Shown here piece after piece: positions 4,905-11,597 of a DNA stretch of 12,736 nt (positions are counted from its first letter, which is position 1; each line of letters begins with the position of its first letter). The translations under genes were made by a program, and so were the position numbers. This DNA comes from Candidatus Nanohalobium sp. Lineage in GTDB: Archaea; Nanohalarchaeota; Nanosalinia; Nanosalinales; Nanosalinaceae. Location: positions 8,306 to 21,041 of the forward strand of contig JBDGTY010000024.1 in the NCBI GenBank assembly GCA_042216335.1, in the 5' to 3' direction. The notes beneath the pieces are model-generated. The model did no database searches, was not told the origin of the DNA, and saw only the letters and a program-made list of their open reading frames with translations.

Positions 4905-5906
4905 ATGAGCCATGAATGCGAGGAGTGTGGAGAGGAGTTCGACACGGAGCGAGGACTCTCAGTCCACAAAACACAGAGCCACAGTGAAGAGGATTCTGGA
5001 AAAACTACTACAGAAAAGAGAGAGGATACAGTCCAGGAGATCTCTCTGAACGTCCGACAGTTCGGAGGACTGGTCTTCGGCCTGGGACTTTTCCTCGGGA
5101 TCATAATCGGAGGGACATTCTCCGGCGGTTCACTTGACGTGGCGGCACCACAGTTAGAGGTTACGGGGGATACAGGTTCTCCAATTCCGTCAGATTCCCC
5201 TGCTCAGAACACAGGTAAAACGAAAGATACTGACACAGGCAAGGGCGATTCAGGTAACACAGGTTCGCAGGTTGTCTCCCTTAATTCAGGAGACTATCCA
5301 TACAACGGCCTTAAAGCCGGCATTGGGGAAGGCAACGTGACCCTGAACGGTAAAACTTTCAGGTTAAAGGGCGAGCCTTACATCGGTTCTGCGGATGCGC
5401 CGGTTACCGCTGTATCGTTTGAGGACTTCGAGTGTCCTTTCTGCAGTCGTTACAACCAGGATGCTTTCCCTAAGATCAGGGAGAACTATGTGGCTCCTGG
5501 CAAGGTTCAGTACTTCTTCAAGAACCTTCCACTTCCACAGCTTCATCCATGGGCCAAGAAAGCAGCTCTTGCATCGGAATGCGCACTTAACCAGGATGTG
5601 AAGGCTTTCTGGACCTTCAAAAAAGGATTTTTCAGCAATCAGAAGGCGTTAGGTCAGGCATATGGCAGCGGAAACTTCGACAAGTCGATGTACAAGTGGG
5701 CTGAGCAGACAGGCCTGAATGTCGACAAGTTCAAGCAGTGCTACGACAACAAAGAGGAGATGGATGAAGTGGAGGAAGACGCTCAACAGGCAGGAAGCGT
5801 CGGAGCACAGGCCACACCTACAGTGTTTATCGACGGCAAAAAGGTTGAGGGAGCACAGCCATACTCCCGGTTCAAGACCGTAATCAACAACGCACTACAG
5901 CAATGA
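4905..5906 (+). CDS. Membrane-anchored DsbA-family thiol-disulfide oxidoreductase with an N-terminal C2H2 zinc finger
   Basis: CEEC-x12-H-x4-H at the N-terminus, TM helix FGGLVFGLGLFLGIIIGG, S/T/G-rich linker, GSADAPVT...FEDFECPFC active site and cis-Pro loop ATPT. Confidence 0.9.
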   Translation: MSHECEECGEEFDTERGLSVHKTQSHSEEDSGKTTTEKREDTVQEISLNVRQFGGLVFGLGLFLGIIIGGTFSGGSLDVAAPQLEVTGDTGSPIPSDSPAQNTGKTKDTDTGKGDSGNTGSQVVSLNSGDYPYNGLKAGIGEGNVTLNGKTFRLKGEPYIGSADAPVTAVSFEDFECPFCSRYNQDAFPKIRENYVAPGKVQYFFKNLPLPQLHPWAKKAALASECALNQDVKAFWTFKKGFFSNQKALGQAYGSGNFDKSMYKWAEQTGLNVDKFKQCYDNKEEMDEVEEDAQQAGSVGAQATPTVFIDGKKVEGAQPYSRFKTVINNALQQ

Positions 5907-6430
5907 ACCAGGAAATAATCCTTCAGAATCTGAGGAAAGGACTGAAGTCCGCCTTCAGTACCCGGAGGAGGGCAGCCACCACGCTGCTCCTTTCAACCTC
6001 CATCTTTTTCCTCATGGCTCTGTCAAGATCCATAGGTTACTCCACGCAGATGTTCCTGTCCGGGAAAATAGTGAACTGGCTTACCGCCCTGTATACCCGC
6101 GTTCTGGGAGTTTACATAGTCGACGGGTACTACGGCCTGTTCATCAACACGGTCTACGCCGTTCTGATAGGAGTTACCCTGACAAACTTCCACACAAAGT
6201 TCAGGAGCTCGGGCGTGAAAATCAGGAACCTGACAGGAATTGCACCAGGATTCATAGCAGCAGGATGCGCTGGATGCGGCATAGGACTGCTCAGCCTTCT
6301 CGGCATAGCAGGAGGCGTAGCAGTACTCCCTTTGCAGGGAGCACTTCTGAGAATTTCCGGCATGGCACTTCTCTTATTCTTCATAGTCAGGACCGGTGAT
6401 CCAGAGACATGCTCTATCGCCGGGTCGTGA
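5903..6430 (+). CDS. Multi-pass membrane protein with a GCAGCG (CxxC) motif
   Basis: About four hydrophobic segments, AAGCAGCGIG motif and a C-terminal Cys. ATGA overlap with the DsbA gene; 17-nt convergent overlap with map. Confidence 0.8.
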   Translation: MNQEIILQNLRKGLKSAFSTRRRAATTLLLSTSIFFLMALSRSIGYSTQMFLSGKIVNWLTALYTRVLGVYIVDGYYGLFINTVYAVLIGVTLTNFHTKFRSSGVKIRNLTGIAPGFIAAGCAGCGIGLLSLLGIAGGVAVLPLQGALLRISGMALLLFFIVRTGDPETCSIAGS

Positions 6431-9484: not shown

Positions 9485-9601
9485 TTTAACGAATTTAAAC
9501 AGGTTTTGTGGTTTAAGAGACCTCCAGGACGGAACAAGCAGAAAAGGGTAAACGCTTGTTCAGTGAACTGATTTAAAATCGTGTTCAAACAATGAAACAC
9601 G
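9485..9601. promoter_or_regulatory. Divergent promoter region with TTxAAC direct repeats and several palindromes
   Basis: TTTAAC (9485)/TTAAAC (9495); GTGAAC (9563)/TTAAAA (9573); inverted repeats GAACAAGC/GCTTGTTC (9532-9561), GTTCAgTGAAC (9558-9568), GATTTaAAATC (9570-9580) and CGTGTT/AACACG (9580-9601). Confidence 0.5.
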
Positions 9602-9602
9602 T

Positions 9603-10418
9603 ATGAGGAAACTTTCAGCGTTAATTATCCTGGCTATATGCCTGACGACAGCAGGGTTTTCACAGCCTGTAGAACCTCAGACGAAGGCGGCTATAGCACC
9701 AGGTAATCCGTTCTACATTGTTGAAAGCTTTGTAGAGGATCTGGAGGTTGGCCTGGCAGGTATCATAGGAGGTCGGGGCCTGAAGGCGAAGACAATAGCC
9801 AATAACGCTGAGGAGAGTCTTGCAGAGGCAGAAAAACTGGCGGAGATGAACAAGACGAAGAGAGCAGTGAAGATGATCGAAAAGTACGAGAGGAAGTTGA
9901 ACAGATCACAAGAGCTCGCAGGCAGGGAAGGAAACCTGAGCAGCAAGATCATGGAGATATCCCGAAACAACGTAAAGAGGCTGGAAGAGGTCAAGAAGAA
10001 ACTGCCGGAAGAAGCACAGAAAGGCATACAGAACGCGATCAAAAACTCCATAAGAAGAAATAGAGGAATGAAGAACTTCAGCGAAACCAAGCAGCCCAGG
10101 ACACCTAAAGACAAAAATCGGAAAAGGCTTCCACCTAAGAAGAAAAAACCGGTTGGGCCAGGAGCCGGAAAAGCGGAAAAATCTCCTAAGAATGTGACAG
10201 AGCTCAGACCAGAAGGAACGAATAAGACTCCGGAGACAGCGGAAAGATTCCGCAAAAAGGAGAATGGGACGGGAGAAACAGCCATGGATAAAGTAGTGAA
10301 CAGAACACAGGAGCCCGGAGGAACAGTTGAAAAATCCAAAGAAGCCTCTCTGAACGGTTCCGGGGACTCCGGAAACACTGGAGATCCCGTAAACTCGGTC
10401 AGGGAAGGCATGCCCTGA
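9603..10418 (+). CDS. Secreted DUF5667-like helical protein with a disordered tail
   Basis: Signal peptide MRKLSALIILAICLTTAGFS; IAPGNPFYIVESFVE motif followed by AEESLAEAEKL, typical of DUF5667; low-complexity C-terminus; eight N-x-S/T sequons. Confidence 0.8.
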   Translation: MRKLSALIILAICLTTAGFSQPVEPQTKAAIAPGNPFYIVESFVEDLEVGLAGIIGGRGLKAKTIANNAEESLAEAEKLAEMNKTKRAVKMIEKYERKLNRSQELAGREGNLSSKIMEISRNNVKRLEEVKKKLPEEAQKGIQNAIKNSIRRNRGMKNFSETKQPRTPKDKNRKRLPPKKKKPVGPGAGKAEKSPKNVTELRPEGTNKTPETAERFRKKENGTGETAMDKVVNRTQEPGGTVEKSKEASLNGSGDSGNTGDPVNSVREGMP

Positions 10419-10458
10419 ATCGTTAATCCTTTATTTCTGTTTCACTGAGGGATTTTCT

Positions 10459-10839
10459 ATGGCTGTTCCGTTTCCGGAGGCAGAGTTTGAGGTACTTATC
10501 TACATGATGCTCGGAGCTTTCATGGCTCTGACAGCCGCCGGAGGATTCTATATCTGGAAACTCCGGAAACTTCTTGCACAGCACCAGCAGAACGAAGATG
10601 AAGAAGACCTCAGGACGGACAACATAGGCCTAACCCACAAGGCAGAGCAAACCCTGGACGTCGTGCTGGATGATCCAATGCTTCAAAGTGAGCTTCCCGA
10701 CGAACTAGGTGTTTCAAAGGCGACGATCAGCAACGCAGTCTCAGAACTTTTCGAAAGAGACCTTGTAATCAAGAAGAAGAAAGCTAACACCTACCGGATC
10801 GAACCTAACAGGGAAGAACTGAGAAAACAGCAGAGATAA
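10459..10839 (+). CDS. Membrane-anchored winged helix-turn-helix transcriptional regulator
   Basis: N-terminal TM (VLIYMMLGAFMALTAAGGFYIW) followed by KLRK; C-terminal LQSELPDELGVSKATISNAVSELFERDLVIKKKKANTYRI wHTH resembling COG2512-type C-termini. Confidence 0.87.
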   Translation: MAVPFPEAEFEVLIYMMLGAFMALTAAGGFYIWKLRKLLAQHQQNEDEEDLRTDNIGLTHKAEQTLDVVLDDPMLQSELPDELGVSKATISNAVSELFERDLVIKKKKANTYRIEPNREELRKQQR

Positions 10840-10864
10840 ACCATTCTTTCTGGGAAATGCACAC

Positions 10865-10932
10865 CTGAACAGAATTGAACGCGAGAAACACCGTGTTAAA
10901 CGTTATTAAACGGTTTTTCAACAACGTTGAAC
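10865..10932 (+). repeat. Helically phased array of six (T/C)T(A/G/C)AAC hexamers, candidate operator
   Basis: CTGAAC 10865, TTGAAC 10875, TTAAAC 10896, TTAAAC 10906, TTCAAC 10917, TTGAAC 10927 (spacings 10, 21, 10, 11, 10), upstream of TATA-like CTTAAG (10953-10958) and SD GGTGA (10981-10985). Confidence 0.75.
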
Positions 10933-10991
10933 GTCCGTTTCCGGCATGCCCTCTTAAGGGTCGGAGATGTATTCTGACTTGGTGAAATCAC

Positions 10992-11597
10992 ATGAAATAC
11001 GATAACGCATTAACGGCAGCATTTCTGATCGCAGGGATGACTCTATTCGCCGCACCGACAGCGGCACAGACCACAGAAACGAAGGTCGAAACGGACGCGC
11101 AAGCCTCCGCACAGGTAGATATTCAGGCACTCCTACAGACAGTACAGGAGCTCAAGCAGCAGGTTCAGCAGCTCCAGGAAAGAGTCAGCGAACTTGAGGC
11201 AGAGGTCAAGGCCTCCGCAGAAGAGGCTGGAAGACGGGGACCCCCAGAGAAAGCAAGTAACGACGACAACCTCGGAGCTAACGTTTCGGCAGAAGCAAGG
11301 GCCGGTGACAGGAAAGGCGTCCTAGGAGCTATCTCGGCTTTCCTTAGCAGCAAAGGCAACGACAGAGCAGCAGAAGCAGTACAGTCCCCCCAGAGACAGA
11401 GCAATTCCAAAAATGAAAACGGCTCGGAGGACGCAGAAGTAGAGACTCAGGTCAAAGCCAGGGCAAGAGGGAATGTAGAAGCAGGAGCACAGAACAGTAA
11501 ACAGAAGACAGAGACACAGGCCGATACAGACGCCCAGATAAAAGCCGGGATAGGCAGGGCAGGCGTAGAAGCTAAAGCCAACTTAGGCCCTGAATAA
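10992..11597 (+). CDS. Secreted protein with a coiled coil and A/Q/E-rich low-complexity repeats
   Basis: SD GGTGA; signal peptide ending APTAA|Q; heptad segment IQALLQTVQELKQQVQQLQERVSELEAEV. Confidence 0.82.
   Translation: MKYDNALTAAFLIAGMTLFAAPTAAQTTETKVETDAQASAQVDIQALLQTVQELKQQVQQLQERVSELEAEVKASAEEAGRRGPPEKASNDDNLGANVSAEARAGDRKGVLGAISAFLSSKGNDRAAEAVQSPQRQSNSKNENGSEDAEVETQVKARARGNVEAGAQNSKQKTETQADTDAQIKAGIGRAGVEAKANLGPE

Follow-up and report, generated by a model that had tools for sequence, protein, structure and literature searches.

Regulators of the ToxR/CadC type bind repeated sites near the promoter. They are winged helix-turn-helix (wHTH) proteins that stay tethered to the membrane, as described for CadC and for the co-component systems ToxR/ToxS, TcpP/TcpH, VtrA/VtrC and PsaE/PsaF, in which the partner is a membrane-tethered, lipocalin-like β-barrel protein encoded downstream in the same orientation, often with an overlap (Kinch et al., 2022, PMC9214523). 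For archaea, a survey has counted 1,384 transmembrane transcription regulators (TTRs), about four per genome, with single-pass forms being the commonest (Demey et al., 2023, PMC10269533). This survey is a census without operators or partners, and no mention of Nanohaloarchaeota, MarR or DPANN was found in its main text. In Sulfolobus acidocaldarius, ArnR and ArnR1 are membrane-bound activators of surface-structure genes, the boxes of which lie upstream of the B recognition element (BRE) and TATA box (-43 to -84; Bischof et al., 2019, PMC6396743). Here, we analyze a locus in a 12,736-nucleotide (nt) stretch of DNA from Candidatus Nanohalobium sp. (the window), which comprises a gene for a predicted membrane-tethered wHTH regulator of 126 residues (g2), genes for two exported proteins on either side of it (g1 and g3) and a phased array of direct repeats in front of g3 that is probably the operator of the regulator.

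Nanohaloarchaea, the genomes of which measure about 1 Mb, depend on haloarchaea as obligate partners, and to our knowledge almost nothing is known about their gene regulation. The genome under study has 1,021,146 bases (1.02 Mb) in 74 contigs and is 96% complete, the window being on contig C17. An earlier reading made from the letters of the window (the sequence-only reading) had described three co-directional genes, a single transmembrane (TM) helix plus a wHTH domain in the middle product, and a repeat array in the promoter that follows. A check of the open reading frames (ORFs) of the window recovered the three genes, all on the + strand, at 9603-10418 (g1, 271 residues), 10459-10839 (g2, 126 residues) and 10992-11597 (g3, 201 residues). 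The make-up of the middle protein was upheld by hydropathy, by the family matches of its orthologues and by an AlphaFold2 model, and the array was found as six T[AGT]AAC boxes before g3. Searches with hidden Markov models, which had been suggested as a check, assigned g1 to DUF5667 and the DNA-binding part of g2 to wHTH families, and gave only sub-threshold coiled-coil families for g3. The comparative work described below indicates that the firmest unit of the locus is g2 together with the array, rather than the gene trio.

The predicted regulator encoded by g2 (10459-10839, + strand) begins with a 10-residue peptide that would lie outside the cell (the exo-peptide, residues 1-10, containing FPEA), followed by a TM segment (about residues 11-33), an acidic linker and a minimal wHTH domain (residues 57-117). 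Its hydrophobic 19-mer (residues 12-30) has a mean Kyte-Doolittle value above 2, and a single such segment is present in all of the orthologues. Because this segment is preceded by the acidic 10-residue N-terminus and followed by KLRK, the predicted topology is N-out/C-in. In the exo-peptide M1, P4 and F5 are invariant and A8 is nearly so. The motif FPE[AV] or FPGA is found in all 14 main-module regulators having a DUF5667 neighbor and also in most representatives of the g2 family, while the corresponding sequences read PPFQNG and PPFEQA in the two regulators that have no such neighbor.

The class of the DNA-binding domain can be regarded as secure on the strength of family profiles and of the structural model. 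When the orthologues were aligned, HVO_A0261_N was matched in 14 of 14 and DUF7343 in 12 of 14 at E <= 1e-3 (best 3.1e-8), and the profile of the g2 family matches MarR, AdcR and Lrs14-like chains in PDB. The AlphaFold2 model consists of a long helix at residues 6-47 and of three helices with a β-hairpin wing, at a predicted local distance difference test score (pLDDT) of 86-89. A fold search with this model gave 17 PDB matches at E <= 1e-3; the matches listed are MarR/ArsR-type regulators and CodY, with complexes of MarR with DNA included. AbfR2, an Lrs14-type archaeal biofilm regulator, came at rank 20 (E 1.1e-3, 32% identity, root-mean-square deviation 3.5 over 85 columns). Residues S86, K87, A88, T89 and S91 of the recognition helix are invariant in 14 of 14 sequences, even where overall identity falls to 33%.

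With a predicted DNA-binding domain and at least one predicted TM region, g2 is a TTR as defined by Demey et al. (2023, PMC10269533), although the usual TTR has an ectodomain and g2 has none. When 1.84 billion representatives were searched with HMMER, 11 full-length relatives were found at E <= 6e-28, followed by a cliff. The weaker relatives beyond it are archaeal proteins composed of an outside region, a TM helix and a C-terminal DUF7343 wHTH domain; DUF7343 is present in all 30 of those scanned and DUF5667 in none of the 30. These proteins have the same order of parts as g2 and are the nearest sequence relatives of its wHTH domain, but they carry an outside domain of 60-190 residues in cis, unlike g2. 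The genome itself encodes such a protein, which aligns with g2 by hhalign at a probability of 76% (E 2.4e-5). It is encoded on contig C28 (799-1695 of locus L092, + strand) and has 298 residues, in which a signal peptide, about 180 residues that form a β-rich outside domain and a TM helix precede a DUF7343 wHTH domain at the C-terminus (E 6e-21); look-alikes of 290-410 residues occur in most genomes of the family. Judged from the sequences, g2 seems to have branched off, without an ectodomain, from a type of membrane-tethered regulator that is common in archaea. A search for DUF7343 by name found no publication, and none of the relatives with an outside domain is known to have been characterized.

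How, then, does the locus compare with the described systems? It resembles those of the ToxR/CadC type in combining a single-pass tethered wHTH protein with a neighboring exported protein, and in having surface-protein or adhesin genes as targets, which are putative here (Kinch et al., 2022, PMC9214523). However, the wHTH domain of the ToxR/CadC type is of the CadC/OmpR class (Trans_reg_C), a family absent from the 13 Pfam and 16 NCBIfam matches obtained, and is N-terminal in an N-in/C-out protein with a C-terminal periplasmic domain past the TM helix, whereas that of g2 is MarR/DUF7343-like and C-terminal in a protein predicted to be N-out/C-in with only 10 N-terminal residues outside. The neighbor also differs from a co-component partner: g1 encodes a secreted four-helix protein, upstream of or divergent from g2. 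Thus, the proposal of the sequence-only reading that this is an archaeal analogue of ToxR/CadC is apt as regards the way in which the system might work, but the locus is not a member of that group, since helix-turn-helix class, topology and partner fold all differ. With ArnR and ArnR1 the locus shares boxes upstream of the core promoter of a surface-protein gene. ArnR has a helix-turn-helix domain at its N-terminus, HAMP-like and sensor domains, two TM helices at its C-terminus and inverted-repeat sites (Bischof et al., 2019, PMC6396743); g2, by comparison, has one N-terminal TM helix, a C-terminal wHTH domain, no further domain and putative direct-repeat sites, and is thus not of the ArnR type. 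Regulators of the Lrs14/AbfR and MarR types, which came out best when the DNA-binding domain was matched by sequence and by fold, are soluble dimers with dimerization helices, whereas g2 is a minimal wHTH without such helices, tethered by its TM segment. The same reading held that no characterized system has this make-up: tethered regulators are common in archaea (Demey et al., 2023, PMC10269533), so the kind as such is known, but nothing was found in print on this locus, a search that included nanohaloarchaeal transmembrane regulators and judged publications by title and the start of the abstract. From its sequence it looks like an undescribed case of the control of surface genes from the membrane.

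The array (10866-10932, + strand) is a direct repeat of six T[AGT]AAC(G) boxes, which start at 10866, 10876, 10897, 10907, 10918 and 10928. Since the spacings are 10, 21, 10, 11 and 10 bp, the boxes would all face the same side of the helix. On both strands of the whole genome there is one phased chain of four or more boxes, and in five Markov shuffles there is none. Likewise, a profile built from the aligned promoters has a single significant match in the genome (E 4.3e-31), and the next best (E 3.9) lies upstream of g1. Tandem Repeats Finder reported nothing for the array, because only a 5-7-nt core of each 10-11-nt unit is conserved. The genome has four strict pairs of boxes. Two are intergenic and precede g1 and g3; the remaining two fall within coding sequence or at its beginning and were dismissed as chance occurrences. 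In the aligned promoters the core of the box is as constant as the recognition helix of g2.

The array is followed by GTTTCC, the TATA-like element TTAAGGGT, the Shine-Dalgarno-like element TTGGTGAA and the start codon of g3. The promoter segment at 10937-10961 (+ strand), formed by GTTTCNGG and TTAAGGGT (the latter at 10954-10961), is made up of invariant or nearly invariant columns, with TTAAGGGT as a putative TATA box; TTGGTGAA (10979-10986, + strand), 6-13 nt before the start codon, is also conserved in the alignment. Upstream of g1 there are two distal T[AGT]AAC boxes at a distance of 10 bp (9485-9501, + strand), kept in the six genomes that share the gene order of the window, and a proximal box with GTT (9549-9562, + strand), in which T.AAC is invariant in six g1 upstream regions and which ends 17-18 nt before a conserved TATA-like TTTAAAA. 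In these six genomes, the distance between the two distal boxes is 10-11 bp and there is one proximal box, which together with GTT is reminiscent of the g3 promoter, where GTTTC comes after the last box. The TTTAAAA element (9572-9578, + strand) lies 31-25 nt before the start codon of g1, a position typical of a leaderless promoter. Ahead of 612 long ORFs in this genome, the peak of TTTAAA is at -35 to -26 (37 of 57 occurrences) and GGTGA at -15 to -11 (36 of 89), and because of where these elements fall relative to the peaks, g1 appears to be leaderless and g3 leadered.

The evidence that ties the array to g2 is comparative. In a search of 61 relatives, full-length g2 orthologues (51-77% identity) were found in 12 other genomes, a distant orthologue (33%) in a thirteenth and a second copy, belonging to a paralogous module, in one genome; with two genomes added later and the genome of the window, 16 genomes have g2. 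All of them belong to one nanohaloarchaeal family, and a scan of a genome collection returned the g2 family only from Nanohaloarchaea or from records labeled 'uncultured archaeon', except for one spurious match of 24 residues. When 70 genomes of the phylum were scanned with a 37-nt pattern of four boxes, allowing at most one mismatch, 12 of them gave a single match each, and the reversed control pattern was present in 0 of 70. Eleven of these 12 matches sit in the g2 locus; the twelfth, at the end of a contig, comes from a genome that is 75% complete and in which no g2 orthologue turned up. The promoter profile added four further g2 loci to those with the array (E 4e-20, 2e-19, 7e-14 and 7e-8) and matched the paralogous module weakly (5e-4), while at two g1-like genes without an adjoining regulator (L067 and L071) the same profile did not find it. 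The array is thus present in 15 of the 16 genomes with g2, the sixteenth being represented by a 3-kb contig that is too short to tell, and the linkage is one-to-one.

The geometry is kept as well. The start codon follows the last box by 55-64 nt in 10 of 11 loci and by 75 nt in one, and the array is always on the strand of the next gene, which encodes a protein with a signal peptide. This holds across six gene orders. Type I, g1-g2-array-g3, is that of the window and of five other genomes, six in all. Type II is array-g3-g1-g2 (four genomes), with a small CxxC ORF between g3 and g1; type III is array-acidic secreted protein-g1-g2 (one genome), type IV array-two secreted proteins-methyltransferase-g2 (one genome) and type V array-small secreted protein-g2 (one genome). 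In types II to V, g2 is downstream of the array promoter on the same strand. In type VI, found in two genomes and in the paralogous module, g2 is divergent from array-g1. The genomes with g2 are kin, whereas the repeated rearrangements of gene order are independent trials. Such linkage, with a recognition helix and a box core that are both constant, is what one would expect to see of a regulator and its operator. Co-location of the three genes in other genomes, on which the sequence-only reading had staked itself, was found for g1 (14 of 16 genomes) and for the g3 family (10 of 16), and a single-copy array, linked to g2 in 15 of 16 and placed at a fixed distance before an exported protein, fits its view of that protein as a target. 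The CxxC ORF of type II, zinc-ribbon-like and present as an ORF or a conserved stretch (L042 2860-3093, L043 2381-2611 and L040 2373-2654), has no counterpart in the window.

The first gene of the trio, g1 (9603-10418, + strand), encodes an exported DUF5667 protein with a signal peptide (about residues 1-20), a four-helix domain (about 38-161) and a disordered, sequon-rich tail. Residues 31-137 match Pfam DUF5667 (PF18915) with 55.9 bits (cut-off 27, E 6.1e-15) over profile positions 2-99 of 99, which makes g1 a member of the family, and the score in a whole-genome search is 57.8 bits. The signal peptide, assigned by inspection, has N-terminal K/R, a hydrophobic stretch and a small-x-small site that aligns with the AxA-Q sites of the orthologues. 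The AlphaFold2 model (pLDDT 86-97 over residues 51-150) is all-helical, with helices at 38-81, 85-106, 110-133 and 136-161 before the disordered tail. The protein carries nine N-x-S/T sequons, with enrichment in the tail, and is unusually basic (isoelectric point 9.9; 4.2-9.9 in the orthologues). Foldseek gave no match in PDB at E <= 1e-3, and a wide VIA-align search gave, as its best, designed helical repeats at Z 11.5, inside the stated noise range for helical models; Atlas structures near g1 are DUF5667 clusters, mostly bacterial, and TPR-like helical models, at TM-scores of 0.39-0.60. As the fold matches are generic helical repeats only, they provide no functional lead, and a search for DUF5667 by name found no publication.

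Based on its sequence context, g1 is a frequent partner of g2 and the gene most constantly found next to it. The two adjoin in the 14 genomes mentioned above, co-directionally or divergently, and in the paralogous second module, with gaps of 2-4 nt in two genomes and 30-60 nt in others. Most of the spacers of 30-60 nt, to which that of the window (10419-10458) belongs, hold T-runs of at least five, which may bring about partial termination and hold the level of the regulator below that of g1. Of 70 genomes of the phylum, 44 have DUF5667, in many cases in short secreted proteins that stand alone. On contig C65 of the genome (8357-10699, - strand), a secreted protein of 780 residues with an internal DUF5667 is encoded beside another of 353 residues, with no regulator nearby.

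The putatively array-driven protein of the window, g3 (10992-11597, + strand), is a secreted coiled-coil protein with a signal peptide recognized by inspection; its coiled-coil stretch matches coiled-coil families only below threshold. With 201 residues it is shorter than four aligned orthologues (265-287 residues) and lacks Fn3_arc, an archaeal Fn3-like domain found in four of five aligned members of the g3 family (best E 5.8e-7). The possibility that g3 is a diverged DUF5667 protein was rejected, since hhalign aligned the signal peptides only (probability 30%). Very acidic small secreted proteins are array-driven in three genomes (L045 2520-3092; L046 2318-2638 and 2738-3289; L047 3603-3944). 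They share only a C-terminal motif like QGPPE...RGP...FV...FG, and a GPPEH motif is also present in the g3 family.

These observations can be put together as follows. g2 would be a membrane-tethered transcription factor with a wHTH domain of the MarR/Lrs14/DUF7343 type, having its 10-residue exo-peptide outside, one helix through the membrane and the part that binds DNA on the cytoplasmic side. The most likely operator is the row of phased direct repeats, four to six TTRAACG boxes, on which several wHTH monomers would sit side by side on one face of the helix. As the array is just upstream of the core promoter of g3, g2 would control a secreted coiled-coil surface protein, and with the weaker boxes upstream of the g1-g2 operon it probably controls itself as well. 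Activation seems likelier than repression because the boxes are upstream of the TATA-like elements. g1 might provide, as a separate protein, the ectodomain that is built into related regulators. On balance we hold it probable, though not by a wide measure of confidence, that a tethered g2 acting on the phased array explains the locus as a whole.

Several observations weigh against this account. The topology of g2 is assigned from hydropathy and charge alone, and its own Pfam scores all fall below the cut-offs (HVO_A0261_N 26.2 of 35, MarR_2 24.9 of 27, DUF7343, PF24034, 24.1 of 27.6). At the g3 promoter the last box of the array is itself TATA-like and the Shine-Dalgarno-like element falls where a transcript started from TTAAGGGT would begin, so that the assignment of the TATA element and with it the sign of control are uncertain. 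As for autoregulation, the boxes upstream of g1 are restricted to the gene order of the window, none was seen there in the type II genomes, and the profile match upstream of g1 is not significant alone. The genomes with g2 being kin in one family, their counts overstate independence. A scan of metagenomes with the four-box pattern gave at least 125 loci, with g2, g1 or g3 in 0 of the 125 matches listed, although this says nothing about the link between g2 and the array because the pattern is too unspecific and chance matches are expected in a collection of such size. The module is also missing in two genomes of the same genus, between syntenic genes for methionine aminopeptidase, malic enzyme and an ATP-grasp protein (malic enzyme and ATP-grasp genes are 805 and 347 nt apart there, vs 3,395 nt in the window), and a third such genome (G003) has a truncated g1 remnant and neither g2 nor g3. 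The module is thus accessory and dispensable; loss is likelier than gain because the malic enzyme gene adjoins g1 in another genus too. The remnant (L112 1082-1405, - strand), a signal peptide with about 60 DUF5667 residues, is at the syntenic site beside a Methyltransf_11 gene, and in one other genome a similar methyltransferase gene (L046 3354-3950) takes the place of g1 ahead of g2. A sensing role of g1, finally, is at odds with its cleavable-looking signal peptide and the absence, by inspection, of a membrane anchor, with the short stand-alone DUF5667 proteins, which have a regulator nearby in 0 of 18 loci, with the two genomes of the divergent type VI, where the array precedes g1 itself and would drive it, and with the two regulators that keep the array and secreted targets without an adjacent DUF5667 gene.

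How much, then, does g1 contribute? The sequence-only reading cast the DUF5667 protein as a sensor or co-component, and in its strictest form this would make it an obligatory outside sensor in complex with g2, like ToxS with ToxR or VtrC with VtrA, g2 being inactive alone. The pairing of the two genes is indeed close, with gaps down to 2-4 nt, and survives in divergent orientation and in the paralogous module; the FPEA exo-peptide tracks the presence of g1, and g2 has no ectodomain of its own. However, besides the two regulators that do without it, g1 is upstream of g2 rather than downstream and overlapping, its product is α-helical rather than lipocalin-like and seems to be released rather than anchored, and it becomes an array-driven gene in the divergent type. 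A fusion of DUF5667, TM helix and wHTH was found in none of the 30 g2 relatives scanned, none of 127 regulator-like representatives and none of 40 g1 relatives of 132-583 residues, the longer length class not having been searched. The strict form is therefore unlikely, and the sensor claim as such was not borne out. A part in envelope stress or in host contact, which the same reading had suggested as possible, is conjecture. While g1 is certainly a target of the regulon in some genomes, that it is also an extracellular modulator docking on the FPEA exo-peptide can be entertained tentatively, on sequence grounds. A more elaborate version, in which the locus would be a split transmembrane one-component system peculiar to nanohaloarchaea, with docking of g1 on FPEA setting the number of tethered monomers lined up on the six-box operator and so switching on the coiled-coil/Fn3 surface protein at host contact, we regard as doubtful. 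If it were true, the sensor would be part of its own regulon, and the circuit would report on the secreted layer of the cell.

The opposite view dispenses with sensing: g2 would be a constitutive tether that holds the genes for a few secreted proteins, namely g3, g1 and the small acidic ones, at the membrane and couples their transcription, translation and export, the DUF5667 protein being mere cargo. Every array-driven gene encodes a protein with a signal peptide, the regulator has almost nothing outside the cell, and g1 itself is array-driven in two genomes and the paralogous module, all of which would suit such a tether, but an inert anchor has no need of a strongly conserved exo-peptide and a single locus per genome would give a dedicated tether very little to do, so that we find this view rather improbable. 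Could the array instead be bound by another factor, or be merely an unusual core promoter, with g2 nearby for unrelated reasons and having another DNA target or none? The boxes do resemble TATA-like words (TTTAAAC, TTAAAC), and the linkage could be shared inheritance in one family. Yet it survives six gene orders, including a divergent placement and a shift that puts the array 1.5-2.1 kb upstream of g2 instead of downstream; the array is absent where g2 is absent, and there is one array per genome, unlike a general type of promoter. This makes such a reading very improbable. Least credible by far is a centromere-like or membrane-attachment site by which g2 would tether the chromosome for segregation or DNA handling. 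Unique, single-copy phased direct repeats beside the gene of a small membrane-bound DNA-binding protein might call such a site to mind, but the distance from array to start codon is fixed, with conserved TATA-like and Shine-Dalgarno-like elements in between, no partition ATPase gene is present in the cluster, and a segregation system would hardly be missing in genomes of the same genus.

If a tethered g2 does act on the array, the locus offers a defined regulator and a strongly conserved cis-element, namely 70 bp of DNA and a domain of 80 residues, in organisms about whose regulation little is on record. Its putative targets are secreted surface proteins, the class likeliest to matter at the interface between cells. 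It would also be a compact case of a transcription factor that acts while fixed in the membrane, having no ectodomain, a minimal wHTH domain and sites on one face of the DNA. Should g1 modulate g2, this would be the first function for the widespread DUF5667 and an archaeal counterpart of the independently arisen bacterial co-component systems; should it not, a clean pair of regulator and operator would still be left, of moderate interest only.

The wider setting of the locus was surveyed as well. Rfam had no match in the window. A search of viral contigs with the g2 alignment found none, and PHROGs and PADLOC searches gave weak matches at the level of the wHTH domain only, because of which there is no sign of a viral or defense role. 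The idea that the genome lacks two-component systems, prompted by Galperin et al. (2018, PMC5847659), was rejected on finding four Response_reg matches in the genome. Elsewhere in the window, a gene at 4905-5906 (+ strand) encodes a protein of 333 residues that has, by eye, a zinc-finger-like N-terminus (CxxC...HxxxxH), one TM helix and a Thioredoxin_4/DSBA domain (E 2.4e-33). A gene at 5903-6430 (+ strand), which shares 4 nt with it, encodes a multi-TM protein of 175 residues that has no Pfam match. The two may form a DsbA/DsbB-like pair with an unusual cytoplasmic zinc finger. A gene for a DUF2283 protein (E 3.1e-6) and an ORF of 103 residues without a family, at 1417-1740 and 1737-2048 on the - strand, likewise overlap by 4 nt, and their layout resembles that of a small toxin-antitoxin-like pair.

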